IMG/VR virus record: IMGVR_UViG_3300021431_000075
Span: 576,001-640,000 of that record
Direction: 5' to 3' (one strand)
Length of the DNA stretch: 64,000 nt
Origin: a virus
Lineage: Duplodnaviria; Caudoviricetes
Each line of letters opens with the position of its first letter. Position 1 is the stretch's first letter. Under the pieces are notes generated by a model. That model saw only the letters and a list, made by a program, of their open reading frames with translations. It had not been told where the DNA came from and made no database searches. This document shows positions 5,406 to 46,769 of the stretch, in pieces. The position numbers and the translations under genes were made by a program.

Positions 5406-5480
5406 TTATTGTTCAACCTGTGTTCTTTCAATAGAATTATCTTCAAAATCTGCATCCTTGATAATCAAAAGTTTTCCCAT
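5406..5480 (-). CDS. 24-aa leader micro-ORF MGKLLIIKDADFEDNSIERTQVEQ
   Basis: Manual translation; four paralogous micro-ORFs with synonymous differences, one per outer cassette. Confidence 0.7.
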   Translation of the reverse strand: MGKLLIIKDADFEDNSIERTQVEQ

Positions 5481-5504
5481 TGATTGCACTCTTATTTTTT
5501 AGAA

Positions 5505-5527
5505 ATTGTTTCTAAACAGGTAAGTTT
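5505..5527 (-). repeat. Outer-family putative recombination site L1
   Basis: Perfect 23-bp inverted repeat with 5595-5617; 22-bp core AAACTTACCTGTTTAGAAACAA also at 37478-37501 and 39221-39244. Confidence 0.8.
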
Positions 5528-5594
5528 GCATCTTGCTGGTTTTCAAAGACTTCAATTTGTTCACAATAGCATTATATGAAGTTGTAACTAACTG

Positions 5595-5617
5595 AAACTT
5601 ACCTGTTTAGAAACAAT
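5595..5617 (+). repeat. Outer-family putative recombination site R1
   Basis: AAACTTACCTGTTTAGAAACAAT; 67-bp spacer to L1 has no ATAAATA motif. Confidence 0.8.
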
Positions 5618-5679: not shown

Positions 5680-5760
5680 ATGGGAAAGATTGTAATCATA
5701 AAGGATGCAGATTTTGAAGAAAATTCAATTGACATTCATCAAACATCATCAGAACAATAA
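5680..5760 (+). CDS. 26-aa leader micro-ORF MGKIVIIKDADFEENSIDIHQTSSEQ
   Basis: Manual translation; paralogue of 5406, 37375 and 39308 micro-ORFs. Confidence 0.7.
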   Translation: MGKIVIIKDADFEENSIDIHQTSSEQ

Positions 5761-5780
5761 AATAACTTCAACATCAAGAC

Positions 5781-8796: not shown

Positions 8797-9666
8797 ATGA
8801 GCGGAATTGCATTTATAGTTCCAAACGCAGACTTTTCAGGCAGCGTTCTTGGACAAGTAACGATTCAGAAAACTGTTGAAGAAATGGCTTCAACGGTCGT
8901 AAAAGCATACACAGATAAGATTGGAAGCACTCAGTATTCTTCTCAACTGACGAATATGGTAATGTCTCTTATGAGAGAAGGAATATGGAACGGTATTGAC
9001 GTATATCCGATGCTCGGTTCCACTTTAAATCATATGGCTATCAATATAAATCCAAACAACGGATTCCAAGGCCTTGATTTGAAATTTGGCACTAATGCTT
9101 CATATGTTACAAATGGTGTTGAGTTTGCAGAAGGCGATGATTACGGAAGTACTATAACAGATGTGACATATAAGGCATATGACGGTACTGCTGCAGAAGT
9201 TACACAATCTCTAAATGGTTTCTACATATTATCTGATTTGAGAAGATATACTTTGAATGGAAGAATCAGAACTTTTTATACTACAAGAGGTAACCAGAAC
9301 ACTCCGGTCACAATAAAAATAGGTTCAACTGGTAAGGCTATTTGGGAAATTAGCAATACGAGTTTATCATCCACAACGTTAATCGGAACAAGTAGAAATA
9401 ATGTTTCATTTTCAATTAATAACGGAACAATGATAGAATATATTGATGGTGTTCAAGATGTATCGACAGCAGTTGGTTTTGCAAGCGACTCACCAAATGT
9501 CAGGATTGGCAATTTCTTGGGAGCATCGCCAGTTAATGATACTGCAGTAACCACATTTAACGGTTCTTGCTGGTTCTGGGCCATTGGCATAATAGATCCA
9601 TCAAAGCATGCGACAGCAAATACAATATTTAAGACATTCCTTGATGCAGTAAAACCGAACATTTAA
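8797..9666 (+). CDS. Cassette B partner protein (LamG-like beta-rich), paralogue of 41391..42371
   Basis: Shared MSGIAFI..N.DFS, IW.GID.YPM and IFKTFLD..KP motifs. Confidence 0.6.
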   Translation: MSGIAFIVPNADFSGSVLGQVTIQKTVEEMASTVVKAYTDKIGSTQYSSQLTNMVMSLMREGIWNGIDVYPMLGSTLNHMAININPNNGFQGLDLKFGTNASYVTNGVEFAEGDDYGSTITDVTYKAYDGTAAEVTQSLNGFYILSDLRRYTLNGRIRTFYTTRGNQNTPVTIKIGSTGKAIWEISNTSLSSTTLIGTSRNNVSFSINNGTMIEYIDGVQDVSTAVGFASDSPNVRIGNFLGASPVNDTAVTTFNGSCWFWAIGIIDPSKHATANTIFKTFLDAVKPNI

Positions 9667-10705: not shown

Positions 10706-12457
10706 TTAAACTATTAATCTTTTCATTTCAGATAGATAAAACTTAAAAACTTTATCTTCTCCGGCTTGTGATTGGTGTTTGCCGTCATATGTATAAAGTC
10801 CATAACGTTTAGAATATCCATTATTCAACACTCCGTTATTGGTTGCTTCTTCATAAGTGCTTATCTGACCAGTCGAATCTTTAATAAAGTTGTATATCGG
10901 ATTTGTTCTTGACAAGTTAGTTCTGTCATTTGCAACACCCGGATTTCCATCATTGTAATATGGCTGGCATGGTTCAGTGAACGGAGAGAAACCACAATAA
11001 CGCTCTCCATCTATTATCTGAATGCACATGCGTTTGCATACATCTATTATAACATCATTCACTCGTTTAGCACTTTCACCATTCATATTACCCAATCTTT
11101 GAAATACAGTTCCGACAACAATATATGCAGTCGGATATTGTCTCTTGAGATATTCAAGATAGTATCTCATGCAAGCATATGTAGTCGTGGCGCTTTCAAG
11201 TTCTTTATAATTATATGTAGAGAATGCATCAGAAGCGGTTCCAATATCTTCTGTGTTACTAATGTCATTTCCACCAAGTTGAATGATAATTATATCAGGT
11301 TCTATATTTTCTGACTCAAAACTGTTTATCTGAGCGCCTAAACAATTTGTAAGTGTTTGGTCTTGATACTTATTTCTCCATGTAGCACCACCATTCGCAT
11401 AGTTTCTAAAAGTGTCTATTTCCAATTCTTCAGCAAGACGTTGTGCCCATTTGGTATTTCCGGTAGCGGTTGAAGAATCACCAAACACAATCATTGTTTT
11501 CCCTGATGTCGGCAAAGAATGTTTTAACGATTCGATTTTGTCATTCACTTCTGTGATTTTTGAATTAGTATATTCAATCGGATTCGATGTACGTTTCCAT
11601 AACGCTTTTGACAAAGATGTCCAAAGTGAGTTGAATATCAATGTGTCAAAAGAACCATCACATTCTATTGTTTCTGTTACAATTTCGGAACTTGTGCTTG
11701 AACCAATTTCTATAATTATATCATTCTTCACTTTTGCATATAGTTTTCCAGTTGAACCTCCTTGACCTGTTATTATGAACACATCTCCGATTGAAAAATC
11801 AGTTACTATTAAATATCTTCTTGTAGTTTTTGATGTATCAGGTGTAATTTCGGACAAACGATCACCGACATTTGTCTGAATCATTCCTACATTATTTGCA
11901 AAATCATCTTTGAAGTCAATGTCTATGTTTCCAGAAATGCTTGCTTTTATATTTTGCAATTCTTCTGTTATGATGTCTTTATATGGTCTGTAACTTTTAT
12001 GGATGATATTCAAATCTGCAGTTCTGCTGTTGAATATCAAAGTGTCAAATGTGCCATCGCAATAAACTTCAATCGTAGATAAAGAACTATTGCCTTCTGC
12101 ATATATGATAATGTCATCTTTTGCTTTCGCAACTAATTTTCCTGTTACACCTCCAGCACCTGTGATGATAAAAACATCTCCAGAAACAAAATCACTTGTT
12201 ATATAATAAGACCTGTTTGTTGATTCTTGGACAGTCTGCTCAGAAACTTTTCCATCAATTGGCGTTGGAAATATTCCATGTATGAATCTATTTTTAATAT
12301 CTTCATCATTTCTGTTCAGCAATAATGATTGTATAGTATTGGTTATAGTTGCTTGTGTTACGCTGCCGTCCGTGTTATAACCAAGTTCATTATATAAATT
12401 ATCCTTGATGTCATAAACAACACCTTTGACTCTTATTTTAGTTACATTATTACTCAT
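10706..12457 (-). CDS. Inner cassette 1: fibre-like protein with SGNH hydrolase domain
   Basis: Start reassigned to MSNNVTKIRVKG by paralogy; FGDSS, NGGA, QLGGND, DGKH blocks. Confidence 0.75.
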   Translation of the reverse strand: MSNNVTKIRVKGVVYDIKDNLYNELGYNTDGSVTQATITNTIQSLLLNRNDEDIKNRFIHGIFPTPIDGKVSEQTVQESTNRSYYITSDFVSGDVFIITGAGGVTGKLVAKAKDDIIIYAEGNSSLSTIEVYCDGTFDTLIFNSRTADLNIIHKSYRPYKDIITEELQNIKASISGNIDIDFKDDFANNVGMIQTNVGDRLSEITPDTSKTTRRYLIVTDFSIGDVFIITGQGGSTGKLYAKVKNDIIIEIGSSTSSEIVTETIECDGSFDTLIFNSLWTSLSKALWKRTSNPIEYTNSKITEVNDKIESLKHSLPTSGKTMIVFGDSSTATGNTKWAQRLAEELEIDTFRNYANGGATWRNKYQDQTLTNCLGAQINSFESENIEPDIIIIQLGGNDISNTEDIGTASDAFSTYNYKELESATTTYACMRYYLEYLKRQYPTAYIVVGTVFQRLGNMNGESAKRVNDVIIDVCKRMCIQIIDGERYCGFSPFTEPCQPYYNDGNPGVANDRTNLSRTNPIYNFIKDSTGQISTYEEATNNGVLNNGYSKRYGLYTYDGKHQSQAGEDKVFKFYLSEMKRLIV

Positions 12458-12504: not shown

Positions 12505-12518
12505 GTTTCTTATTCAAG
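12505..12518 (-). repeat. Inner-family site S1 (one mismatch: CTTGAATAAGAAAC)
   Basis: 13/14 match to CCTGAATAAGAAAC; variant base at 12517. Confidence 0.7.
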
Positions 12519-12599
12519 CGAGTTTGCTACAGCATAGAACTACTTACAATTCTCTAATGCACAGAAACTTACACCAACTAATTGAAAGAGTAGAACTTA

Positions 12600-12613
12600 C
12601 CTGAATAAGAAAC
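12600..12613 (+). repeat. Inner-family site S2
   Basis: Exact CCTGAATAAGAAAC preceded by GAACTTA. Confidence 0.8.
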
Positions 12614-14768: not shown

Positions 14769-15545
14769 TTAATTATGCTCTATATGGAAATAAGTGTCTA
14801 TGTTTGATTCATTCAAAACAAATGTTACATCAACTGTTTGCGCTGCACTTCCATAAGCAGCCATGTTCAAAGCGAAACCGCCGCCTGTTGATGGAAGATA
14901 ACTTGACAAGTCGATAACTGTTTCTACTGTTGCACTACCTTTCCATTGCGAATCTCTTGAAATTTCTGTCAAATCATTTCCGGTTGCATAACAAACTCTG
15001 ACTTTATATCCGGGCGCTACATAAATCGTATAGTTGTTATCACTAACTGCTGTCAAGCATTTGGTAGTAGTTCCTTCAACCGTATCATACCATCCATATA
15101 TCTTGTTGTAATAAGTATCTGTTGAAGTATAAACTTTGAATTTTTTATCCGTTCCCCAACTACCGGTTACTGAAACGATATTGTGTTCTTCATAGAATGA
15201 AACATGTTCTTCTACTGCAATTGTCTTAGTGGCAGAAATCAATGAATTATAAACAGACGTTGCACGGATAACAATACTTTGCGCACTTCTATTCATATCA
15301 ATCGTCAAAACGCCATAACTGTTGATAGACGCGATTTCGCTTCCTTCTACAATGCTCCATTCGACGTCGGTTTCTTCCGTGTTGGCAGGATTGTAAACTA
15401 TACTATATTCAACGCTTGTCGTGTTGCTTGATATAGTTGAAGGTCCATCAATGCTTATGCTTTCAACACGACCTGCCAAGAAAGTTACTTGTCCCAAGTT
15501 ATTATTTGAGAAATCCAAATCGGTCACTTTTATCGCGATACCCAT
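14769..15545 (-). CDS. Cassette 3 partner protein with Ig-like (Big_2-type) domain
   Basis: MGIAIKVTDLDFS N-terminus; YNPANTEETDVEWSIVEGSEIASINSYGVLT. Confidence 0.65.
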   Translation of the reverse strand: MGIAIKVTDLDFSNNNLGQVTFLAGRVESISIDGPSTISSNTTSVEYSIVYNPANTEETDVEWSIVEGSEIASINSYGVLTIDMNRSAQSIVIRATSVYNSLISATKTIAVEEHVSFYEEHNIVSVTGSWGTDKKFKVYTSTDTYYNKIYGWYDTVEGTTTKCLTAVSDNNYTIYVAPGYKVRVCYATGNDLTEISRDSQWKGSATVETVIDLSSYLPSTGGGFALNMAAYGSAAQTVDVTFVLNESNIDTYFHIEHN

Positions 15546-16952: not shown

Positions 16953-16966
16953 GTTTCTTATTCAGG
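16953..16966 (-). repeat. Inner-family site S3
   Basis: Exact reverse complement of CCTGAATAAGAAAC. Confidence 0.8.
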
Positions 16967-17047
16967 CGTGTTTGATGCGGCATATAACTACTTACAATTC
17001 TCTAATGCACAGAAACTTACACTAACTAAGGGAAAGAGTAGAACTTA
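16967..17047 (+). repeat. 81-bp spacer repeated between back-to-back sites
   Basis: Identical (reverse complement) to 32218-32298; about 8 mismatches to 12519-12599. Confidence 0.85.
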
Positions 17048-17061
17048 CCTGAATAAGAAAC
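17048..17061 (+). repeat. Inner-family site S4
   Basis: Exact CCTGAATAAGAAAC. Confidence 0.8.
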
Positions 17062-20216: not shown

Positions 20217-20224
20217 GATAAATA
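20217..20224 (+). promoter_or_regulatory. Putative late promoter GATAAATA of tail tube gene
   Basis: Same octamer upstream of the prohead protease and in both switch segments. Confidence 0.55.
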
Positions 20225-25772: not shown

Positions 25773-25801
25773 CGTTTCTTATTCAGGTAAGTTTTGTTCT
25801 T
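25773..25801 (-). repeat. Inner-family site S5 (left arm of promoter switch)
   Basis: 29-bp inverted repeat with 26161-26189, 1 mismatch. Confidence 0.85.
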
Positions 25802-26160
25802 TCCTTTCCGTCTTTGAAAACTGCTCGTTCTTTCCTTAAAAATGTTTTTTTATTTTTCAAGTCAAGAACTTCATCGAAAACGATTTTACTATTTATCTTG
25901 ATTTGACGCTTTCTTGTTATTCTGTTTTTGCTAATCAGATAAAAAGAAACATCCATTTCGATTGAGAGTTCTCAAATGCTGACAGTCACTTGTCATGACT
26001 AATCAGCCAAAGAAACACTTTTATTTTCATTATTTATCTTTGCATTTTGCGAGACCATTCAAAACGCTTTTCAGGTTTATTAGCACAGAACAGCTGCTGG
26101 ACTGCGATTTCTTGAAGTTAAGAAATCTTAATAAAAACACGTAACGCATTATTAATATTG
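25802..26160 (-). promoter_or_regulatory. Putative invertible promoter segment of the inner array
   Basis: Non-coding; GATAAATA on minus strand at 25890-25897 and 26031-26038; 26013-26038 matches the protease promoter/leader 50341-50365 except for one inserted base. Confidence 0.7.
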
Positions 26161-26189
26161 AAGAACAAAACGTACCTGAATAAGAAACG
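26161..26189 (+). repeat. Inner-family site S6 (right arm of promoter switch)
   Basis: AAGAACAAAACGTACCTGAATAAGAAACG. Confidence 0.85.
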
Positions 26190-32203: not shown

Positions 32204-32217
32204 GTTTCTTATTCAGG
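32204..32217 (-). repeat. Inner-family site S7
   Basis: Exact reverse complement of CCTGAATAAGAAAC. Confidence 0.8.
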
Positions 32218-32298
32218 TAAGTTCTACTCTTTCCCTTAGTTAGTGTAAGTTTCTGTGCATTAGAGAATTGTAAGTAGTTATATGCCGCATCAAACACG

Positions 32299-32312
32299 CC
32301 TGAATAAGAAAC
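32299..32312 (+). repeat. Inner-family site S8
   Basis: Exact CCTGAATAAGAAAC. Confidence 0.8.
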
Positions 32313-36028: not shown

Positions 36029-37354
36029 TTAAATCTTTACCTTAATTGTGTAGTTTGTGCTATCAATGTAAGCATATCCAGTTTCAATATTTGTGCCGTC
36101 GCTTACTGGTAAGTCAGCAAGTAAATTCTCGATTGTTGGCGTTTCGGATTCGCCTCCATCTTCACTACTTCCACCACTGTTGTTGGAACCTTTAATCGCA
36201 TAACCCTTTATTTTTGATATTTCTTGCATAAACGGTTCAAATGATGGTAAAGTATTACCTTCACAAATCATCAATTCATCATAAGGTGTTTCCCAATCTT
36301 GAGGAATTGTACTACTATTTGACTTTATATTAAAAAGAAGATATGCAGCATTATTCGGAGATGTGAGTGTTTTTGGAGATAAAAAACCTTTTGGATCTGA
36401 AAAAATATATGGAGAAGTGCCGCTTAATTCAATTTTTGCATCATTTGAATCACGGAAAACAAAATAACCAGCACGTCCGAGATAAAAACCACCGAATGTA
36501 TAATCTGTATTTGGTTTAATTGCAATCCTAATATAACTCCAATCAGAACCGTTTGTAATATTACCAGTATTTGAAATGTATTTTCCTTCAACAATATTAT
36601 TTGTCTTGTCTGCAAGATTCTTTCCGCTCGGTTCCAGAGTTAAATCATTATTATCTATATATTCTGTTAAATCAGAATGTTGTACATATTGCTGTAATGA
36701 TGTAGATAATAAAGGATTAACTATATCTTCAATTTGTGAATTTGGAACTTTCAGTTCATATCCTTTTATTTTATTGACATAACTATAATAAGGTTTAAAA
36801 GAAGGTAAAGTATTACCTTCACAAAGCATCAATTCATCATAAGGCGTTTGCCAATCTTGAGGAATTGTGCTACTGTCTGATTTTATATCAAAAAGAAGGT
36901 ATGCGGCATTACTTGGAGTTGTGATTGTTTTGGGAGACAAAAAACCGTTTGGGTCTTTAAAGGCATATTGAGATGTTCCGCTTAATTCAATTTTTGCATC
37001 ATTCGTGTCATGAAAAACAAAATAGCCTGTCCGTCCGAGATAAAAACCACCGAATGTATAATTTGTGTTTGGCTTGATTACAATCCTAATATAACTCCAA
37101 TCAGAACCGTTTGCAATATTACCAGTATTTGTAATGTATTTTCCTTCAATAATATTTGTCTTGTTTGCAAGATTGTCACTTGCAACGATTGACAAATCAT
37201 CATTACTTATAAACTTCTCATTTACTTCATCAATAACATCTTGAATATTGTCAGCATCTAAACCACTTGTAGATGAATCATAAGATACTAAAGAAGCAAC
37301 TGTGCTTATAGTATAATCACGTTCTTCAACATTTATCTTCGTTACATTAGCCAT
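36029..37354 (-). CDS. Outer cassette C: fibre-like protein with a tandemly duplicated ~140-aa domain
   Basis: MANVTKINVEERDYTI N-terminus; near-identical repeats at ~36749-37174 and ~36191-36619. Confidence 0.65.
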   Translation of the reverse strand: MANVTKINVEERDYTISTVASLVSYDSSTSGLDADNIQDVIDEVNEKFISNDDLSIVASDNLANKTNIIEGKYITNTGNIANGSDWSYIRIVIKPNTNYTFGGFYLGRTGYFVFHDTNDAKIELSGTSQYAFKDPNGFLSPKTITTPSNAAYLLFDIKSDSSTIPQDWQTPYDELMLCEGNTLPSFKPYYSYVNKIKGYELKVPNSQIEDIVNPLLSTSLQQYVQHSDLTEYIDNNDLTLEPSGKNLADKTNNIVEGKYISNTGNITNGSDWSYIRIAIKPNTDYTFGGFYLGRAGYFVFRDSNDAKIELSGTSPYIFSDPKGFLSPKTLTSPNNAAYLLFNIKSNSSTIPQDWETPYDELMICEGNTLPSFEPFMQEISKIKGYAIKGSNNSGGSSEDGGESETPTIENLLADLPVSDGTNIETGYAYIDSTNYTIKVKI

Positions 37355-37374: not shown

Positions 37375-37452
37375 TTATTGTTCTTCTATTGATACTGTTT
37401 CAACTGAGTTTTCTTCAAAATCAGCATCCTTGATGATTAAAAGTTTTCCCAT
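37375..37452 (-). CDS. 25-aa leader micro-ORF MGKLLIIKDADFEENSVETVSIEEQ
   Basis: Manual translation; paralogue of the other three. Confidence 0.7.
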   Translation of the reverse strand: MGKLLIIKDADFEENSVETVSIEEQ

Positions 37453-37477: not shown

Positions 37478-37501
37478 TTGTTTCTAAACAGGTAAGTTTC
37501 G
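37478..37501 (-). repeat. Outer-family site L2
   Basis: Perfect 24-bp inverted repeat with 39221-39244 flanking the recombinase gene. Confidence 0.85.
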
Positions 37502-37534
37502 CTTTTTTATGATTGTAAAATTTACAGTCATAAC

Positions 37535-37568
37535 AAAAGAGAGAGCGAACATCAATCCGCTCTCTCTT
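37535..37568 (-). terminator. Recombinase terminator insulating cassette C
   Basis: AAGAGAGAGCG...CGCTCTCTCTT stem between recombinase stop and L2. Confidence 0.7.
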
Positions 37569-37594
37569 GTATACATTAAAAATAAAATAATCAA

Positions 37595-38587
37595 TCAATC
37601 ATTCCAGCATACGTACTTTCCAAACGCGCTTTCCGATTTATGTCCAGATGCGCGTCTCACTTCTTCGTTGTGCAACCCACGTTTGATTGCATTTGTAATC
37701 ATCGTTCTTCTTGCCGTATGTGAACTGATAAGCTCATAGAACTTGTATGTCACTTTCTTCAGTTCCCCGTTCTGCTTATACTCGTATACGATCTCATCAT
37801 CAAAACCGGCAAGTTTGAACAGTAAGTGAAGATACTTGTTATAGTTCTCTGTGCCTCCCTTGTATGGATTCGTATAGTTATACTTCATAAGAAGTCCCTC
37901 TATTATTTTTGGATATGGAGCTATCCTTTTCAAATCTATGACTGCTTTGTTTCCTGTTTTCTTCTGAATAATCGTAAGAACGTTGTTATTGAACATCGTC
38001 TTGTCGATTCTTTCGATGTCAGATATTCTCTGTCCAAGCGCGCATGAAATGACAAACTGGTCCCTGACTTTCGTAAGAGTCTGCTTGAGCTGTGGTCTCA
38101 CGTCAAGAGTGCTTATGTCAAAATATGTTATTCTGGATACTTCATCTTGCGTCAAAGCAATCTTTGGTCTCTTGTCGCTACCCGGCATGTAACAGTCTTC
38201 CAGTGTTGGAGACACTTTCGCCCCGTACTTGGCAGACCATTTCAGAACTGCCGAAATCTTGCAGCAGATGTTGTTGATTGTGCTTGTTGCAAGGTTCTTC
38301 TGAAGAAGGTAAGTATGAAATTGCTGCCAGAACACATCTCCGATTACAATCGGGTAAAGAACGATTTCATTCTCGTTCTGGATATTCATCAAGTGCATCT
38401 TCACTTGAGAGTATCTCCGTTCAGCTGCTTTCGTTGATGCTTTTGAGCGAATCTTCACATACTGGTCAATACATTCAAGAACCGTTGCATTCTTGAGATT
38501 GATAAAATGGTTAAATTTGTCCGTGTCTGCAAAGATTTTAAAATTTGGACACTTCTTTTCCGGTTCTTCCGATTTTATATCTGCCAT
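37595..38587 (-). CDS. Tyrosine recombinase (Bacteroidota-type integrase family), putative invertase
   Basis: Catalytic signature GQRISD (R), QKKTG (K), SHTARR (HxxR), SGH, and Y in FGKYV. Confidence 0.92.
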   Translation of the reverse strand: MADIKSEEPEKKCPNFKIFADTDKFNHFINLKNATVLECIDQYVKIRSKASTKAAERRYSQVKMHLMNIQNENEIVLYPIVIGDVFWQQFHTYLLQKNLATSTINNICCKISAVLKWSAKYGAKVSPTLEDCYMPGSDKRPKIALTQDEVSRITYFDISTLDVRPQLKQTLTKVRDQFVISCALGQRISDIERIDKTMFNNNVLTIIQKKTGNKAVIDLKRIAPYPKIIEGLLMKYNYTNPYKGGTENYNKYLHLLFKLAGFDDEIVYEYKQNGELKKVTYKFYELISSHTARRTMITNAIKRGLHNEEVRRASGHKSESAFGKYVCWND

Positions 38588-38627
38588 GACGACTTTATTT
38601 AATTGTAATTATTGTTGTTTGTGTCTG

Positions 38628-38635
38628 CAAAATTA
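38628..38635 (-). promoter_or_regulatory. Bacteroidota-type -7 box TAATTTTG upstream of recombinase
   Basis: Matches TAnnTTTG followed by CA, as at 29383 and 58221. Confidence 0.55.
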
Positions 38636-38768
38636 TAATTTTAATCTCAAAGAAGAAATTATACGGAACATATTTGAGAAAAATTTAACTTTAATTAAGC
38701 CAATTTGTAGTTTTGTCTATTCAAAATGAAGAAATCTCTCATTTTTAAGCGTTCAAAATAAAAGCAAA

Positions 38769-38776
38769 GATAAATA
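38769..38776 (+). promoter_or_regulatory. Distal late-promoter-like GATAAATA in the outer switch
   Basis: Context GCAAAGATAAATA identical to 26031-26043 (minus strand). Confidence 0.5.
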
Positions 38777-39132
38777 AAATCAGAAGGATTGATACTATCG
38801 AGCATGATGCGAGTGGCTTTGTAAAATGCATTAGATTGCAGACGCAAGGTTTCATTCTAACGAGTTTGAAAAGACATTCCGTCAAGAAACCTCCGGTTTT
38901 TCTATTAGGCTGGAAAGTTTCGCCGGGAATCATCACCGGACTTTACAGAGGATTTTCCGCACATCGCATATGTCTGTAGATAATGTACGTGCTAATATCT
39001 ATAATAGATTTGTTTTTGATGAGACTCTTCGCAAGTCTGCATGAAATGACAATTTTCTCATAAAACGACAATGGTTCTATTTAGTGTTTCTTCACGACAG
39101 TCAGCAAATAAAAACAATGCTAAAAACGTTAA

Positions 39133-39140
39133 GATAAATA
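39133..39140 (+). promoter_or_regulatory. Proximal late-promoter-like GATAAATA in the outer switch
   Basis: Context AAGATAAATAnTAAAAT shared with the 25890 motif; ~80 nt from site R2. Confidence 0.6.
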
Positions 39141-39220
39141 CTAAAATAATGATTATTCGAACTGATGCTGTGATGAACATTTCAGAGAAGAATATCCGTT
39201 TCGATAACAAGTTTGAAAAA

Positions 39221-39244
39221 CGAAACTTACCTGTTTAGAAACAA
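39221..39244 (+). repeat. Outer-family site R2
   Basis: CGAAACTTACCTGTTTAGAAACAA. Confidence 0.85.
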
Positions 39245-39307
39245 TCGTTAAAAATACTAACACTCTTGTTTTAATCATTTTAAAATAACATTTGTAGAAA
39301 AGTTTTC

Positions 39308-39382
39308 ATGGGAAAGATTGTTATTATCAAGGATGCAGATTTTGAAGAAAATTCAATAGAAAGAACATCATCAAATCAATAA
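39308..39382 (+). CDS. 24-aa leader micro-ORF MGKIVIIKDADFEENSIERTSSNQ
   Basis: Manual translation; paralogue of the other three. Confidence 0.7.
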   Translation: MGKIVIIKDADFEENSIERTSSNQ

Positions 39383-39403: not shown

Positions 39404-41362
39404 ATGGGTAATCCAATTGTAACGAAGATAACTGTTGAAGATATTCCATATAAAATAAAAGGAACTTTATATGACGAACTTGGCAACAATACTGATGGTG
39501 GTGTAACACAAGCAGCATTGACAGGCTTGTTCAATAATGTTGATTTGTCACTGTTCGATTTTAACAACAAAACAGAGAACTTCAAACTCACATCGACTGA
39601 TGGTTTCTACATCATTGATTCAACAGGAAACATTTGTTTAACAGTAAACGGAAATGGCGTTTTTGATGTATTAGACATCGGAGTGAACATCAGAAGCAAA
39701 ATCGGTTCAATTACTTCTGAAAGTATCAATACTGCAATCACAACAGTCAACGAAGCAATAGACAGCATTGATAATGACGTAAGCAAAGTAAATAGCAAGT
39801 TATCAAACTATGAGATTACAAGCGAAGATGGCTTCAGAATAGTCGACCCTGACGGAAACATATGTTTCATTGTAAGCAGAAACGGAATGCTGGATGCTCT
39901 TGGTTTGGGAAACAACTTGACAGAAATCATCAATAATATAATTTCATCTGGTTCTTTGTCTGTAACTACTCATGAAATTCCGCTTGATATTGAATATGGT
40001 GGCTTGACATTTGACGGTTCTATGACAGGTTCTGATGCAAGAACTGCATTCTTCAACTTAAAGAGAACAAAGAACTTCATCAAGAGAAATACATTTGAAC
40101 TCACATTGACGAATTGTACTGCTCAAGTCTATATGTATGATAGCAGTTTTAATTTTATAAGAATCGTTGATTATGCAACATATATAGAGAATCCGAGCAA
40201 CTATTCATTCTATGCATACAAACTTTTGTTCACGATTACAGATACGACAAATGAAATGAATGTCGTATATGAAGCGAATGATTGCCAGTATATCAAGAAC
40301 AAATATACATCATTAACGGAAATTTCTTTCGTTTATGAAGTTCAAATAAACATTGGCAAAGATGTTCTCGATGATGACCCGACAATCGAAAGAATAATTG
40401 AGGATAAGTATTACAATACAGGTTTTATAAAACTGCCACCAAACTATTCACAGACTGGAAGTCCAACACCTTTGATTCTTTTTGCTCATGGTAGTGGTGA
40501 TTATGGAAGTATAGGTGCAAGTGTAATGACTACGAACTATGCTGCATATTATGAATATCTTCAAAAAGAAGGTTATGCTATATTTGACTGTTATGGTTCA
40601 TCGAATTATTATGCATCAAAATACAACCTTGCATATTCTGTATCTCTCGGAACACCAACAAATATGAGTTGTATCAATGCTGCATACAAATGGGTATGTG
40701 AACATTATAATGTTGATACATCAGGAATATATGTAACTGGAAAATCATTAGGCGGCATTATTTGCTTTGCTATGTTATATCAAAATTCTATTCCGGTCAG
40801 ATGTGTCGGTGCTCTTGCGCCATCTATAGATGCACGTTTTCTTTCTGAATATGTTTTTGGTTATAATGATAAAACGCAGAATTTCTGTTTTGAAGATTTG
40901 GGATTTGATGTGAATGACGGAGACACGAATGAAACGATTTTGCTGAATAATGTTGACAAGTGTGCTAATTTTATTAACTCATTGAGAAATATAACTTACG
41001 CAGAAATCGATAATACTCAAATAACATCTCAAAAGGAAATAGTAAGACAACTTATAAACGTTTCGCCCGGAAATGCAAAATACTCAAAACTGGAAAGAAT
41101 TTGCAATGTTCCTATTAAGATATTCATCGCAAATGATGACAAGATAGTAAGTCTTACTGGCTGCAAATATTTCATCAATTCTATCAAAGCAACAGGCGGT
41201 GATGCAGAAATACGCTTATTTCCTTCAAATACTGGAGGGCATCATGCGGTAGATACTGACACAAACGCGTTAAAAGTCAATGTTACTACAAAACTCGGCT
41301 ATGATTGTTCAGACGTGCCATTGGCATACGCAGAACTCGTGCAGTATTTTAGAAAATATTGA
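39404..41362 (+). CDS. Outer cassette D: fibre-like protein with alpha/beta hydrolase (esterase-like) domain (predicted ON)
   Basis: MGNPIVTKI N-terminus; LILFAHGSG, nucleophile elbow GKSLGG, ANDDKIV, GGHH. Confidence 0.75.
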   Translation: MGNPIVTKITVEDIPYKIKGTLYDELGNNTDGGVTQAALTGLFNNVDLSLFDFNNKTENFKLTSTDGFYIIDSTGNICLTVNGNGVFDVLDIGVNIRSKIGSITSESINTAITTVNEAIDSIDNDVSKVNSKLSNYEITSEDGFRIVDPDGNICFIVSRNGMLDALGLGNNLTEIINNIISSGSLSVTTHEIPLDIEYGGLTFDGSMTGSDARTAFFNLKRTKNFIKRNTFELTLTNCTAQVYMYDSSFNFIRIVDYATYIENPSNYSFYAYKLLFTITDTTNEMNVVYEANDCQYIKNKYTSLTEISFVYEVQINIGKDVLDDDPTIERIIEDKYYNTGFIKLPPNYSQTGSPTPLILFAHGSGDYGSIGASVMTTNYAAYYEYLQKEGYAIFDCYGSSNYYASKYNLAYSVSLGTPTNMSCINAAYKWVCEHYNVDTSGIYVTGKSLGGIICFAMLYQNSIPVRCVGALAPSIDARFLSEYVFGYNDKTQNFCFEDLGFDVNDGDTNETILLNNVDKCANFINSLRNITYAEIDNTQITSQKEIVRQLINVSPGNAKYSKLERICNVPIKIFIANDDKIVSLTGCKYFINSIKATGGDAEIRLFPSNTGGHHAVDTDTNALKVNVTTKLGYDCSDVPLAYAELVQYFRKY

Positions 41363-41390: not shown

Positions 41391-42371
41391 ATGAGCGGCA
41401 TAGCATTTATATTGGAAAACTCGGATTTTTCAAGCGAAAATATCGGCACAATAGAACTCGGTTCAGCGATTGAAAACATCGTTGATAGATACATATCATC
41501 TGCCGGAGGCAGTGCTTCAACATACAGGGCTGCTTTATTAAGGATGGTAACATCTCTAAAGCAAGAAAATATCTGGGATGGAATCGACATTTATCCTATG
41601 GTCGGCAACAATTTGACAATAAATCTCAATCCAACAGATGGTAAAGTAAAGGCAAATCTTGTTTATGATACAGACCATGCTACGATGGGAAACAATATGT
41701 TTACATTTGACGGTAACGGTCCGGGTGCAAGTTCAAACATAACTAACATGTCTGGCGAATATATAATATTGCCAACTGATTCAACAAGAGCAAATTTATA
41801 TGTCTGTGCTGATGTTGAACTTAACGAAAATGCACAAACTCCCGGAATACCAAAGAATAGTAGATTCATTTATGGTCAACGTAATACAGGCAATATTAAA
41901 TTTTTCACAGCAAGTTGCTCAACATGGGGTGATGGTTCATCGTCTCCTATAGTATTATTGTTGGATGCTTCTGGCGGAACTGGAAAAAATAGAGCAGCAT
42001 ATGACCCATCACAAGACAGATTAGTAAGAAGATTATACAGTTTCTCTATAATTGATATTGATGAAACGATTGACGAAACGAATTATACATCTGAAACTAT
42101 TCTTCGTGTTAATGGAGCTAAGGTAACACCAGACAATTCACTTGGTGGATTTAAGACTACAGCCAAAAACGGAAGTTATAAGCTAAGTCAAAATAATGGA
42201 ATTGGATTTATGGAGTCACAGGCAGGTGCAACTGGAATAGATGGATATTATACATTGGACGGAAACGTCCGATTCTTTGCCAGAGGTATCTTAAGTCAAG
42301 AAAATGCTCTTAAAGCAGACAATATCTTCAAGACATTCCTTGATAGCACAAAGCCATATACAAATTCATAA
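41391..42371 (+). CDS. Cassette D partner protein, paralogue of 8797..9666
   Basis: Shared N- and C-terminal motifs with a divergent middle. Confidence 0.6.
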   Translation: MSGIAFILENSDFSSENIGTIELGSAIENIVDRYISSAGGSASTYRAALLRMVTSLKQENIWDGIDIYPMVGNNLTINLNPTDGKVKANLVYDTDHATMGNNMFTFDGNGPGASSNITNMSGEYIILPTDSTRANLYVCADVELNENAQTPGIPKNSRFIYGQRNTGNIKFFTASCSTWGDGSSSPIVLLLDASGGTGKNRAAYDPSQDRLVRRLYSFSIIDIDETIDETNYTSETILRVNGAKVTPDNSLGGFKTTAKNGSYKLSQNNGIGFMESQAGATGIDGYYTLDGNVRFFARGILSQENALKADNIFKTFLDSTKPYTNS

Positions 42372-42387
42372 CTATCAACCATATATC

Positions 42388-42430
42388 AAAAAAGCAGATG
42401 AGCATCAAAAACTCATCTGCTTTTCTTTTT
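42388..42430. terminator. Bidirectional terminator; right boundary of the cassette locus
   Basis: AAAAGCAGATGAG...CTCATCTGCTTTT. Confidence 0.75.
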
Positions 42431-45400
42431 ATCCGTTATTGCTTCCGCCGTTGTTCATGCTTCTCAACCTGTCCTTGAATATCGCGCTCCTGTTCAACGC
42501 GAAGTCAACATCAGCCTGCTCGACCTTCTTTATCTTTCCCTTGAACAGAGGACTTCTCTCCGGCTGCTCTATCCTCTCCATCTGCATCTCTGTTCCGGTC
42601 TTTTCATTCTTGACTTCGACAAGGTTCTGCATCTTCATGTCATGTCTGACCTCGTTGACGGTCTTTTCCATCATCTTCATCAACTCGAACAGCTGCTCTA
42701 TGTTCGCATTCCTGACACTGTCGATGTCAAGGTTCGAGAACAGCTCTATCTTGTCAAGAATCTTCCGCTTCGCGTCATTGTCTATCAACCTCTGCATGTT
42801 CATGTCCGGAACATCTCCGTTGTCCTGAAGAACATACTCTCCGATTTTCATATCGTCTTTCGCGCTTCCGCCTTCAACATCTATCTCATCCATCTTCATG
42901 TCTGGCAACTTCATATTCTGCTTATCAAGTTCTTGCATCGCCTGTCCTTCCGGCTTCTCGCTCTTGAAAAGTCTATCCATCTCCATATCATCAAGCTTTC
43001 CATGCTCGACAAGTCTCTCGTCCTTCAACTTATGCACAAGCGGCTTGTCAATCAGTTCCGGCATCTCCATTGCTGAACTTGAATCATTCACAACCATCTC
43101 CTGCATCTTCATCTTCGGAACATCCATTTCCGATTCATCAAGTTCCTGCATCGTCTGACCTATACTAATGTCATTCTCGACAAGTCTCTCCATCTCCATA
43201 ACTTCCGGCTTCCCGCGCTCGACAAGCCTTTCATCTCTCATCTTGTGCTCAATCGGTCTCTCGACAAGTTCCTGCATCTTCATCACGATGCTCGCGTCGC
43301 TCATCACCATCTCCTGCATCTTCATCTCCGGCAACTTCATTGCATCAACCATCTGAACATCCTTCATCTCAATGTCCGGATTCTCTCCGACCAGCGAGAA
43401 CTCGATGTCTCTTTCCGGCTTCTGCAAGTCCATCTCGATTCTGTCAAGTTCCTGTGTCTCGTTTTTGTACTCGCGGTTCTCAAGCTCGACATAGTTCATA
43501 TCTGGTTTCAGACTGCTGTCAAGAAGTCCGACCATCGATGCATCATGCTGAATCGCGCTATCGAAAACTGGATGCATCATGTCCATGCCCGGTTTCTCAA
43601 GGTTCATTTCCATACCAGCCATCGTCGTATGTTCGACGCCTATGTCAACAAGCGATATGTCCTTGATTTTCCCGTCTATCTTTCCGGTCATCTCTATGCC
43701 AACCATAGAAGCGTTGTGCTGCACCTCTGAAACAAACTCCGGTGCCACTATATCCGTGTGACCGATAGACAAGTCCATTTCCATGCCGACCAGAGACGCG
43801 TTGTGCTGGACTGTATCTACAAAATCAACCGGAGTCAAGTCAAGATGCTTCACGTCCTCGTTCATTTCCATCTCCGGCATGTTCATTCTCGGCTTTCCAA
43901 GATTCATCTCCATTCCGACCATTGACGCGTTATGCTGAATCTCCGAAATAAACTCCGGTGCCACTATATCTGTGTGACCGACGGACAAGTCCATTTCCAT
44001 TCCGACCATTGACGCGTTCTGCATTCCCTGCTTGCCGTCAATGAACTCGGCAGGAACCATGTCAAGATGCTTCACATCCTCGTTCATCTCCATTCTCGGC
44101 ATCTCCATCTTAGGCAAGTCAAGATTCATCTCAAGACCGACCATTGACGCGTCATGCTGAATCGTATCAATAAACTCGACATGCTGCAAATCAAGATGCT
44201 TCACATCCTCATTAAAATCAATAGGAATCAAAGATGCATTGTGCTGAACATTCTCGACGAACTCAGGCGGAACTAAGTCAAGATGTTTCACATCTTCATT
44301 AAATTCAATCGGAACCATAGACGCATCATGCTGAATCGTATCAACAAACTCGACAGGTTGCAAGTCTAAATGTTTCACGTCCTCATTGAACTCTATCGGA
44401 ATCAACGACGCGTCATGCTGGACATTCTCAACGAACTTAGGCGGAATCAAATCCAGATGCTTGACATCCTCATTGAACTCGATTTGAACCATAGACGCAT
44501 CATGCTGAATCGTATCAACAAACTCGACAGGCTGCAAGTCAAGATGCTTGACATCCTCGTTCATAATCAACGACGGCATGTCCATCAAGCCCTTTTCAAG
44601 ATTCATGATGACTTCCTGAAGATTCGAATGCGGAACATCCAAGTTCATTTCAAGTCCAATCAGGTCTTGCGTATATCTTTCAAGATTCATAATGACCTGC
44701 TGCAAATCCTCATGCGGAATGTCAAGATTAAACTGCATCTCCTGCAAGTCTTGAGTGAACTTTTCGTAGTTCATAATCATCTCCGCAAGTTCCTGTTCCG
44801 GTCTCGTCAAGTTGAACTCCATCTTCTGCAAGTCCATATGCGGCTTTGCAAGATTCATGAACATCCTTGCCAAGTCCTGCGTGAACCGTTCAAGATTCAT
44901 GATGACCTGCTGCAAGTCGCCATGTGGCTTATCGAGGTTCATCTCCATTTCCGCAAGTTCCTGTTCCGGCTTCTCCAAATTCATTTCAATCTTGTCCATC
45001 TCCTGTTCCGGTTTCGACAAGTTCATATCAAGCTCGTTCAACTCTTGCGAAGGCTTCTCAACATTCATCTGAAGTTCAGGGTCCACCAAGACATTGTCAG
45101 GATACTTTCCAATCTGGATAGCCCAGTCATTCAAATGGTATGTCATGTTCATGATTCTGTCGATGAAATCACGCCTCATTCCTTCCGTATCAAGCGTAAC
45201 CATCTGATAGTCAAGATATACCATGAAAGTTTCCAAATCAACCCTATTCAAGTCATTCGTGAAGTAATACCTGTCAGACTGTCTGGAGTCTCTAATCAGC
45301 CTTGAGTTCGAAGTCACAATAGACTTCACTGCATTCCACAAGTCCTTGATGTTATGGATGACATAAGCGGAATCAGAAACTGTCGCATAGTGCCATGTGT

Positions 45401-46769
45401 CTTCCGGCTGCGCTATTCCCGCATATCTCGTGTTGATTCTCAAGAAATCGTTATAGTCTCCGAACAAGTGAGTCCTTGCAGCAACATTGCTTGCGTTGAG
45501 ACCGCTGTGATCAGAGAACGCGTTGTACTCATCCGGCATCATGAACATCCTCTGCATCCAGACAAAACGCCAGTCAACATTCCGTCCGTGCTGGAAAGTC
45601 TCCTCCGCGTCATCAACAAAGTCATGGTCCTTCTTCGTAATGATGTCCTTGATGAATATGCATCTTCGGAACAACTGGTTCGACATATATGTCTTGACAT
45701 TGCTGACCTTGACCTCGATGACAGGGTCCGAAGTCTTGACAGACGTGTAATCAGCAGTGTATTCGCTCTCTCCATACGGCTTCATCACAAACTCGCAAGG
45801 AGAACACTCGAAAGCGCAAACCGGGAAATAGTCCTGATCCGGATTGAACATTCCGTATCCCATCGAAACACTCCTGTCATCAAATACATAGATGATCATT
45901 CTGAAGAACCTGTATATGTCAGGAAGAACCCATCTCTGATACACCTCGTCCCATGCCGCCTTTCTGTACAGCTCAAGCAATGTCCTGATTTTCTGGTCTA
46001 TTCCGTCCGAAATGCAAGTCAATGTCAAAGTGCAGTCCTTCAGCCTCTGACCTCGCGCAGTGTCAACCTCTCCGAGTTTCTGGATTCCACCAATCTTCTG
46101 GAACATATACGGAAAATCCCTCTGAATCGTATACAATCCCTCGATAAAATCCTTAAGATACTGCGCACGCCTGTCCTCGTTCCTGTTATAGAGCCAGTTC
46201 ACGGCATTATATACAATCGTGTTGTTGAACGTGGTTGTCGTTCTTGTCGAAGTTATGTTGCCGCGAGTCGAAGTCACAATGGAGTCGAAATTCAGGTCCA
46301 GCAAGCCCATAGGGAAGTCATCATAGTCCTGATAGTATATGTTATCAGACAATGAATTGCGCTGCGTTGACGCAATCGTATTGTCATCAAGAATGCTTGC
46401 ACCCCACATGCCGAACTCGACCTTGAACGTCAGTCTTGTAGGGTCCTCGAAGCCGTCATAGAAAACATCATTGTTCGACTGCGAGCCGTACTCGTTTCCG
46501 AGATGAAACCTCTTGACATGCTCCATCAGACCGACAAACGGTCCAGTGTCAAGAATCTTCGTGGCTGGGTTGTAAACATCTTCAACCGTATAATACCTGT
46601 CGTTTCCTGTCACATACTCACTATAGTTCGCGTTGCTCTTTCCGGTTATCGTCTGCCAAGCCTTCGAGAAGAATGACTGCTTCTTCTCTCCTGAACCGTT
46701 GTTCTGACTCCCGAACGAATTGCCGGAGCCGACAATCTTGTTACTATCTATGCTTTCCTTAATATTCAT
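42429..46769 (-). CDS. Large putative structural protein with long Met/Glu-rich repeat C-terminus
   Basis: Likely start MNIKES; follows neck gene; N-terminal part loosely tube/baseplate-like; 12 x 14-aa and 5 x 29-aa repeats. Confidence 0.55.
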   Translation of the reverse strand: MNIKESIDSNKIVGSGNSFGSQNNGSGEKKQSFFSKAWQTITGKSNANYSEYVTGNDRYYTVEDVYNPATKILDTGPFVGLMEHVKRFHLGNEYGSQSNNDVFYDGFEDPTRLTFKVEFGMWGASILDDNTIASTQRNSLSDNIYYQDYDDFPMGLLDLNFDSIVTSTRGNITSTRTTTTFNNTIVYNAVNWLYNRNEDRRAQYLKDFIEGLYTIQRDFPYMFQKIGGIQKLGEVDTARGQRLKDCTLTLTCISDGIDQKIRTLLELYRKAAWDEVYQRWVLPDIYRFFRMIIYVFDDRSVSMGYGMFNPDQDYFPVCAFECSPCEFVMKPYGESEYTADYTSVKTSDPVIEVKVSNVKTYMSNQLFRRCIFIKDIITKKDHDFVDDAEETFQHGRNVDWRFVWMQRMFMMPDEYNAFSDHSGLNASNVAARTHLFGDYNDFLRINTRYAGIAQPEDTWHYATVSDSAYVIHNIKDLWNAVKSIVTSNSRLIRDSRQSDRYYFTNDLNRVDLETFMVYLDYQMVTLDTEGMRRDFIDRIMNMTYHLNDWAIQIGKYPDNVLVDPELQMNVEKPSQELNELDMNLSKPEQEMDKIEMNLEKPEQELAEMEMNLDKPHGDLQQVIMNLERFTQDLARMFMNLAKPHMDLQKMEFNLTRPEQELAEMIMNYEKFTQDLQEMQFNLDIPHEDLQQVIMNLERYTQDLIGLEMNLDVPHSNLQEVIMNLEKGLMDMPSLIMNEDVKHLDLQPVEFVDTIQHDASMVQIEFNEDVKHLDLIPPKFVENVQHDASLIPIEFNEDVKHLDLQPVEFVDTIQHDASMVPIEFNEDVKHLDLVPPEFVENVQHNASLIPIDFNEDVKHLDLQHVEFIDTIQHDASMVGLEMNLDLPKMEMPRMEMNEDVKHLDMVPAEFIDGKQGMQNASMVGMEMDLSVGHTDIVAPEFISEIQHNASMVGMEMNLGKPRMNMPEMEMNEDVKHLDLTPVDFVDTVQHNASLVGMEMDLSIGHTDIVAPEFVSEVQHNASMVGIEMTGKIDGKIKDISLVDIGVEHTTMAGMEMNLEKPGMDMMHPVFDSAIQHDASMVGLLDSSLKPDMNYVELENREYKNETQELDRIEMDLQKPERDIEFSLVGENPDIEMKDVQMVDAMKLPEMKMQEMVMSDASIVMKMQELVERPIEHKMRDERLVERGKPEVMEMERLVENDISIGQTMQELDESEMDVPKMKMQEMVVNDSSSAMEMPELIDKPLVHKLKDERLVEHGKLDDMEMDRLFKSEKPEGQAMQELDKQNMKLPDMKMDEIDVEGGSAKDDMKIGEYVLQDNGDVPDMNMQRLIDNDAKRKILDKIELFSNLDIDSVRNANIEQLFELMKMMEKTVNEVRHDMKMQNLVEVKNEKTGTEMQMERIEQPERSPLFKGKIKKVEQADVDFALNRSAIFKDRLRSMNNGGSNNG
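44130..45068 (-). repeat. In-frame coding tandem repeats (42-nt x12, then 87-nt x5)
   Basis: MNLEKPEQELAEME-type and FNEDVKHLDLQPVEFVDTIQHDASMVPIE-type units counted in the translation. Confidence 0.8.

Follow-up and report, generated by a model that had tools for sequence, protein, structure and literature searches.

Tail-fibre gene inversion is classic phage biology, known from Mu, P1 and p15B. In phages Mu (Gin/G) and P1 (Cin/C), programmed inversion alternates tail-fibre specificity, and in the Salmonella H segment (hix sites, fljBA promoter) the recombinase gene lies within the invertible DNA, from which an outward promoter reads into a surface-protein gene. A few tyrosine-invertase shufflons are known in prophages, and these swap 3′ coding pieces beside a fixed recombinase (PMC6109161, PMC13596623); Rin of Bifidobacterium prophages is a phage-encoded tyrosine invertase (PMC6109161). 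The subject here is a 1,767-bp segment of a megaphage genome, positions 37478–39244 of a 64,000-nucleotide (nt) window (bases 576001–640000 of the 673,114-bp virus record IMGVR_UViG_3300021431_000075, which has direct terminal repeats), in which a tyrosine recombinase gene is enclosed by inverted sites. The segment is probably the mobile expression module of a phage tyrosine-recombinase inversion system, a promoter shufflon, and most likely decides which host-recognition protein the phage makes.

The segment resembles that of Hin in carrying its recombinase, in directing an outward promoter-like element towards a surface-protein gene and in having short inverted sites. Hin, however, is a serine recombinase with two sites and two states, whereas the present system has a tyrosine recombinase and six sites, and its module, with a gene facing it at either end, moves from one locus to another. 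Gin and Cin are also serine invertases acting on two sites; unlike the enzyme described here, they swap a coding segment and are encoded beside it. In the vsa system of Mycoplasma pulmonis (HvsR, vrs sites), one expression site is joined by site-specific inversions to otherwise silent genes; unlike the present module, that expression site contains the 5′ end of the coding sequence and does not encode HvsR, and the system is cellular rather than viral.

The R64 shufflon (Rci, sfx) shares with this locus many inverted sites, one tyrosine recombinase and inversions, single or grouped, that vary a receptor-binding protein or adhesin. The same multi-site logic is found in the phage shufflons Min (p15B), Rin (PMC6109161) and the BV01-like systems (PMC13596623). 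All of these swap C-terminal coding segments behind a constant 5′ part and keep the recombinase beside the array, whereas the megaphage system re-pairs complete genes, each with its own start, with a mobile promoter, and its recombinase gene is inside the module. In Bacteroides fragilis, Tsr0667 (SusC/SusD) and Tsr19/BF2766 likewise use one tyrosine recombinase on local and distant sites, and promoter inversion picks surface-protein operons in a TAnnTTTG promoter setting, but these systems are chromosomal and the enzyme is encoded outside the invertible DNA (PMC4747536). No description of a phage promoter shufflon, or of such a system in megaphages, was found in the literature, coverage of which is incomplete. 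New here is a self-contained promoter and recombinase module that is moved among complete receptor-binding-type genes over 49 kb, with both states in one metagenome.

Anatomy of the recombinase segment

The segment is bounded by a perfect 24-bp inverted repeat, for which 0.00 matches are expected in shuffles of the window. Site L2 (37478–37501, + strand), consisting of the 22-bp core TTGTTTCTAAACAGGTAAGTTT plus 2 bp, forms the left boundary, at which recombinant junctions fall, and its inverted partner, site R2 (39221–39244, − strand), forms the right boundary. An open reading frame (ORF) for a 330-amino-acid (aa) tyrosine recombinase occupies 37595–38587 (−). The sequence TAATTTTG(CA), a Bacteroidota-type −7 box (38628–38635, −), lies 41 nt upstream of its ATG. 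An intrinsic-terminator-like hairpin (37537–37568, −), with a 14-pair stem followed by a T-run, lies 36 nt inside L2 and 3′ of the recombinase stop codon, where it would end the recombinase transcript; the region has a predicted fold of −29.9 kcal/mol (z-score −5.1). At the opposite end, two promoter-like GATAAATA motifs (38769–38776 and 39133–39140, both +) face R2. The second is located 80 nt inside R2, 168 nt from a micro-ORF and 264 nt from the ATG of the downstream gene D, and a scan of the window found no terminator-like site between this motif and D. In the arrangement of the window, gene D is on the GATAAATA side and gene C on the terminator side. The initial annotation had placed these elements, and the orientation of both ends, as they are found here.

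The recombinase matches PF13102 (27.7 bits, cut-off 22.3) and a PHROG integrase family (5e-15), and falls just under the cut-off for PF00589 (24.6 bits, cut-off 27.1). Residues R187, K210, H290, R293, H316 and Y325 are invariant when the protein is aligned with 20 homologues of as little as 34% identity, so that the catalytic R-K-H-x-x-R-H/W-Y set of tyrosine recombinases is complete. The AlphaFold model (predicted local distance difference test, pLDDT, 88.7) matches lambda Int residues 75–356, XerA, Tn1549 Int and Cre with a Foldseek probability of 1.00, and both Pfam and the model describe a two-domain fold composed of a SAM-like core-binding domain and a catalytic domain. The enzyme class proposed earlier is thus borne out by Pfam, PHROG, the catalytic residues and the fold. 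A PDB profile search with the recombinase gave no match, and single-sequence PDB matches to response regulators were rejected as spurious; NCBIfam gave a weak XerA match only, with no Tsr-family match at E<0.01. By searches with PF00589 and the family profile, it is the sole tyrosine recombinase in the 673-kb genome. The serine-recombinase domain PF00239 has no match on the protein, and no PF00239 gene of the genome is found in the cassette region (-12,900 to 42,400); closest to it are a sub-threshold fragment at approximately window position 44,040 and a weak match at approximately 79,500.

The Pfam and PHROG family name ‘integrase’, together with the occurrence of distant homologues in other contexts, would fit a lysogeny integrase that acts on an unrelated att site, the inverted repeats being incidental. 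We regard this as highly improbable. Integrases of the lambda type have an arm-binding domain and attP arm sites, unlike the system described here, in which six short cores precede genes. The fold covers the core-binding and catalytic domains only: approximately 30 residues precede the core-binding domain, and structural matches begin at lambda Int residue 75. The genome is 673 kb long with direct terminal repeats, the repeated site is always found around the enzyme in close relatives, and natural recombinants fall at those sites.

The layout of terminator, recombinase, host-type box, outward GATAAATA and sites recurs in relatives with 84% and 57% recombinase identity, extending to these relatives the Hin-like plan noted initially, with a recombinase gene and an outward promoter-like element inside a segment bounded by inverted repeats. 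At 84% identity (contig L016, from a different phage, with a terminase nearby), the same site forms an inverted pair (8264–8290 and 11131–11157) that encloses, besides the recombinase, two outward-facing GATAAATA motifs and a TnpB insertion, and the module is flanked by divergent genes with 141-nt homologous 5′ ends. The insert (L016:8693–9946) encodes an IS605-type TnpB (OrfB). At 57% identity (L024), a related site, TGTTTCTAATCAGGTAAATAAC, flanks the recombinase as two inverted copies; four outward GATAAATA motifs lie 5′ of the recombinase, a TAnnTTTG box precedes the gene, and this module also sits between divergent genes with homologous starts. The outward GATAAATA motifs are kept at the same module end in both relatives. 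In a third (L023, 55%), the core is found at the contig start (L023:1–24) with an outward GATAAATA, and a second, different 20-nt inverted repeat directly surrounds the recombinase gene (142–161 and 1337–1356), which may represent a nested design. Homologues at 41–44% identity are found in other contexts with no flanking inverted repeat, distant homologues adjoining lysis genes or methylase/RtcB genes. The architecture is thus a property of a closer subfamily and not of every homologue. Searches of a phage collection and IMG/VR, from which records close to this genome may be missing, gave no near DNA match, no peptide-pattern relative and no exact match to the site.

Family-A sites and their natural recombinants

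The 22-bp core, which defines site family A, has six copies in the genome and none elsewhere, all six perfect against a chance expectation of 0. The sites form three head-to-head pairs, at -9858/-9769 (locus 0), 5506/5595 (locus 1) and 37478/39223 (locus 2), where negative coordinates denote positions left of the window start in the same record. Locus 0 is therefore outside the window. Loci 0 and 1 enclose 67-bp spacers, X0 and X1, and locus 2 encloses X2, the recombinase segment. The six sites alternate in orientation over 49 kb in which other genes are also located. Outward of each site are a leader, a micro-ORF of 24–26 aa and a large gene (0L, 0R, A, B, C or D). The leaders are of two types, with approximately 25 nt (L-type) or 63 nt (R-type) before the micro-ORF, and they diverge beyond the cores, which remain perfect. 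The sites are located 124–165 nt upstream of complete genes, each with its own ATG and N-terminal module. The six encoded proteins are paralogous and fibre- or spike-like. Their shared N-terminal module is of two kinds (VTKI..V.D..YKIKG.LYD..G.NTDG..TQ and VTKINVEE.DY), and their C termini differ, the matches there being to a phage-fibre repeat, to BNR plus laminin-G and, weakly, to alpha/beta-hydrolases.

Assemblies labelled as sheep rumen contain contigs of this phage, which is present in sheep-rumen runs including SRR873597, SRR873598 and those behind ERZ28612959, and recombinants were obtained by looking up exact phage proteins in public assemblies. In the recombinant contigs, each flank is identical (40/40) right up to the core. 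Arrangement I, in which C adjoins the terminator end and D the promoter end, is present in the window, in L033/L038 (a 673,736-bp scaffold) and in L080. In arrangement II the module is located between 0L, at the promoter end, and 0R, at the terminator end, and spacer X0 lies between C and D. Contig L035 contains the 5′ end of 0L, a site, the promoter end, the recombinase, the terminator end, a site and 0R, in that order; L034 extends from the terminator end through 0R over 9.9 kb at 100% identity; and in L082 the final 32 nt of the promoter end are joined to the leader and gene of 0L. The reciprocal product, with X0 between the leader of C and D, is present in L039 and L078; in L039, from assembly ERZ28612978, X0 precedes D. 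The flanks of arrangement II are 100% identical to the window, and the other gene pair is located 47 kb from locus 2.

Arrangement II was found in three independent assemblies (ERZ28612978, ERZ12302814 and JGI 3300002641), and a GCA_001684375.1 contig matches it by gene order alone. Both arrangements coexist, at 100% identity, in JGI 3300002641 (L080 and L035). Between two assemblies sharing a BioSample label in their record names the arrangement differs, being I in S005 and II in S006. Arrangement II is the product of two nested inversions, s1 × s6 and s2 × s5, by which X2 and X0 change places while everything between them returns to its original order. Contig L015, from a relative at 95% DNA identity, has the R-type leader and gene of B attached to the terminator end, a junction that results from a 32-kb inversion, s4 × s5. 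The crossover at this junction lies inside the 22–24-bp core, because L-type and R-type leaders differ directly outside it. The exchange partners in the contigs are thus sites 32–49 kb away. In addition, L036 and L037 consist of the segment alone and L040–L043 start at 39242–39293, so that contigs end exactly at site edges, as is usual when an assembly meets alternative joins. The system shows that differences in gene order between megaphage assemblies, and what look like ‘strain’ differences, can be programmed and not evolutionary.

These contigs bear on the initial proposal of a self-inverting toggle between C and D, of which recombination at the sites is seen in nature, whereas an in-place flip, with the promoter end joined to C, was seen in no contig examined. 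Invertible promoters of the fimS and Bacteroides CPS type carry, between inverted repeats, a promoter whose orientation governs transcription of the adjoining gene; what is observed of this here are the inverted repeats and an outward-facing promoter-like motif with statistical support. A two-state inverton that flips in place to serve C or D, the other four site copies being silent relics, is consistent with the perfect inverted-repeat pair, with the enclosed recombinase gene and with a promoter end that faces D and a terminator end that faces C, and in-place inversion is the geometrically simplest event. It is contradicted by L034, L035, L039, L078 and L082, in which the segment is found at another locus or a distant 67-bp spacer between C and D, and all six cores, the supposed relics included, are perfect. 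We therefore consider it very unlikely.

Rearrangement could instead have arisen by homologous recombination between inverted leader and N-terminal duplicates, or the junctions could be assembly chimeras. All rearrangement evidence comes from short-read assembly contigs, and in the two family-A events at 100% identity the identical run of core plus leader is 46 and ~70 bp long, so that these two events alone would leave homologous recombination possible. The L015 crossover, however, is limited to the 22–24-bp core, and crossovers at a second site family, B (described below), are limited to 14–20 bp. Three to four independent assemblies, produced with different assemblers, show identical junctions, and the cores are perfectly kept while their flanks drift. 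A 22–24-bp repeat is also shorter than the usual final k-mer sizes of assemblers, which counts against chimeras. Either origin is very unlikely in our assessment, and the L015 and family-B junctions (14–24 bp), with the perfect cores between drifting flanks, favour site-specific recombination.

Around locus 2, cassette C (36029–37354, −) encodes a 441-aa protein with a fibre-like N terminus (VTKINVEE...) and adjoins the terminator end, and its L-type leader contains a 25-aa micro-ORF (37375–37452, −). Cassette D (39404–41362, +), at the promoter end, encodes a 652-aa protein with the shared N-terminal module and a weak alpha/beta-hydrolase match, and its R-type leader contains a 24-aa micro-ORF (39308–39382, +). 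At locus 1, site L1 (5506–5529, +) precedes cassette A (2890–5385, −; 831 aa; micro-ORF at 5408–5482, −), and site R1 (5593–5616, −) precedes cassette B (5781–8750, +; 989 aa, BNR plus laminin-G; micro-ORF at ~5681–5761, +). The gap between L1 and R1 is 63 bp, corresponding to 67 bp between the 22-bp cores. The micro-ORF is kept in all six family-A leaders, with the sequence pattern MGK[IL].IIKDADFEEN.... The micro-ORFs resemble the N termini of cassette ‘companion’ genes at 8797–9666, 41391–42371 and 14769–15545.

Promoter motifs and the proposed read-out

The genome contains 90 copies of GATAAATA, of which 76 are intergenic on a gene map made from a crude whole-genome ORF set that leaves ~10% of the genome intergenic. 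This intergenic count is the highest among 168 letter permutations, and 59 of the 76 intergenic copies lie no more than 150 nt upstream of a co-oriented start, typically at 19–50 nt. The enrichment, orientation and start distances indicate that GATAAATA behaves as a phage promoter. It resembles the T4 late promoter TATAAATA. The phage encodes a T4-type gp23-like capsid gene and a prohead-protease-like gene, and GATAAATA is found upstream of the terminase (26 nt), prohead-protease-like (29 nt) and gp23-like capsid (293 nt) genes; ‘late’ timing is plausible, these being the genes that point to it. In Pfam searches, random samples of 10 genes preceded by GATAAATA and 10 preceded by TAnnTTTGC did not separate clearly into early and late functions, and a search for the sheath gene with PF04984 found none. 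Between window positions -12000 and 44000, intergenic GATAAATA is confined to position 20217, the family-B module and the recombinase segment.

The host-type motif TAnnTTTGC has 187 copies in the genome, 89 of them intergenic and 62 within 150 nt of a co-oriented start. Enrichment of TAnnTTTG boxes upstream of phage genes suggests that the host of the megaphage belongs to the Bacteroidota.

A mechanism can be proposed on the basis of these elements. The recombinase would be expressed from its own promoter, carried along within the module; as this promoter travels with the gene, enzyme supply would be independent of position. The enzyme would synapse two inverted cores and exchange the DNA between them. 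Each core parts a gene leader, on its outside, from a segment end, on its inside, so that every event would re-pair leaders with ends. Because any two inverted sites swap their contents, one or two nested inversions of 1.7–49 kb could serve any of the six genes. The promoter end would come to lie before any one of the six and the terminator end before another, while the other two site pairs keep 67-bp ‘empty’ spacers. The leader at the promoter end would be transcribed across the site, through the micro-ORF and into the gene, whereas the leader at the terminator end and the four leaders at the 67-bp spacers would receive no transcription. On this mechanism, D would be ‘on’ in the arrangement of the window and 0L in arrangement II. 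In the temporal scheme suggested initially, host-driven expression of the recombinase would come early, replicating genomes would be shuffled and read-out would follow late. If the read-out model is true, it would account for an uncultured megaphage having 14 paralogous spike genes of which only a chosen few are made, and the system would be a virus-side mirror of the invertible-promoter surface variation in Bacteroidota hosts.

Recombination could also be real without gating expression: the cassettes would have their own promoters and the virion several spikes, as in phages with many depolymerases, and the inversions would only rearrange the genome or spread a selfish recombinase module. Consistent with this, a −7-like TAAGTTTGCA word arises at the junction of the site with one end of the short spacers, and the TnpB inside the module of the 84% relative indicates that the region tolerates mobile DNA. 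No cassette leader, however, has an exact GATAAATA or a TAnnTTTG of its own, and each site family has exactly one promoter-bearing module. The outward promoters are at the same module end in the 84% and 57% relatives, and the strict head-to-head pairing of genes and sites fits control of read-out. On balance, non-gating recombination appears unlikely. As to the TAAGTTTGCA word itself, it is created where GCATC, one end of the 67-bp spacers, adjoins the core (5521–5530, and approximately -9770 at locus 0) and constitutes a TAnnTTTG-type −7 box directed across the spacer to the R-type leader, with the same TTTG-N12 spacing as in the recombinase promoter; it may be due to chance, as loci 0 and 1 are duplicates of each other.

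Several points weigh against the promoter shufflon. Besides the lack of an in-place flip, the identical runs of 46 and ~70 bp and the short-read origin of the contigs, exchange in the 100%-identical population is like-with-like only, R-type with R-type and L-type with L-type. The 330-aa recombinase is the probable catalyst of exchange, as judged from its family, fold and sites, and a host recombinase is formally possible in this role. GATAAATA is also found upstream of TnpB, epimerase and WG-repeat genes and is therefore not strictly a structural-gene signal. Firing of GATAAATA, probably late, and expression of only the cassette behind it are deduced from sequence, and the cassettes could have promoters of an unrecognized type.

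Family-B sites and additional features

In the region separating loci 1 and 2, eight copies of a second site, which defines family B (GTTTCTTATTCAGGTAAGTT), are arranged as four head-to-head pairs, at 12507–12611, 16955–17059, 25776–26186 and 32206–32310. In each of the short pairs, one site is degenerate in its TAAG part. The family-B sites front eight further paralogues with GDSL/SGNH, DUF4886, beta-helix and CBM domains. The segment at 25776–26186, comprising a site pair and a gap of ~375 bp (earlier given as a ‘359-bp’ segment), is the only long one of the four and the only one bearing GATAAATA, with two copies facing a gene for a 1549-aa protein.

The spacer between the 1549-aa and 512-aa genes is variable. 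The long promoter-bearing form is present in the window and in two other assemblies, a short spacer of the 16955/32206 type is found in L048 (ERZ28612978), and one of the 12507 type in L050, a JGI contig. The flanks of these recombinants are 98–100% identical and the crossovers fall within 14–20 bp, too short for homologous recombination. Families A and B share the sequence GTTTCT...CAGGTAAGTT, and searches of the genome with PF00589 and the family profile found no second tyrosine recombinase that could serve family B. Tentatively, one recombinase, encoded inside one of its cassettes, may serve two non-cross-reacting families (A with 6 sites, B with 8), each with one promoter module, so that the phage would display one of six plus one of eight spikes or fibres (48 combinations). 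The nested inversions behind this would reach 49 kb in length and would turn core genes around as well. This possibility is somewhat short of an even chance in our estimate. If true, such a two-family switch would be a combinatorial whole-gene host-range switch with no described viral counterpart. If the read-out model is true, the compact recombinase, the 22-bp site pair and a second, orthogonal-looking family would form a tool for multi-state DNA switches.

Within the recombinase segment, a conserved non-coding element of ~240 nt (38768–39008, +) starts at the first GATAAATA motif and ends in a ATATCTTATAATA-like word. Two paralogues are located at genome positions 442701–442950 and 74829–74961 (73–77% by blastn). 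In the consensus fold of the three-copy alignment, 7 of 71 predicted pairs are compensated, and the element, which matches no Rfam family, could be a structured leader or a small RNA. Rfam gave nothing credible on the segment as a whole, the best match being L20_leader over the terminator (23.5 bits, against a gathering threshold of 58.7). A 55-aa ORF called by some pipelines (39071–39238) is probably spurious, as it includes the second promoter motif and ends inside R2.

Elsewhere in the genome, five or six genes for serine recombinases of ~200 aa are located at positions 76640, 86043, 119357, 198780, 308136 and 655541; several have GATAAATA nearby, and one adjoins a copy of the ~240-nt element. 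At least two genes for IS605-type TnpB (OrfB), at genome positions 173895–175148 and 308602–309855, have GATAAATA just upstream. Downstream of cassette D, ERZ28612978 (L039) differs from the window by ~100 nt in the tandem repeats at 43688–44606, which belong to the ORF at 42429–46769 (−); the gene calls of L039 are split in this repeat region, giving 554 aa and others in place of 1446 aa.

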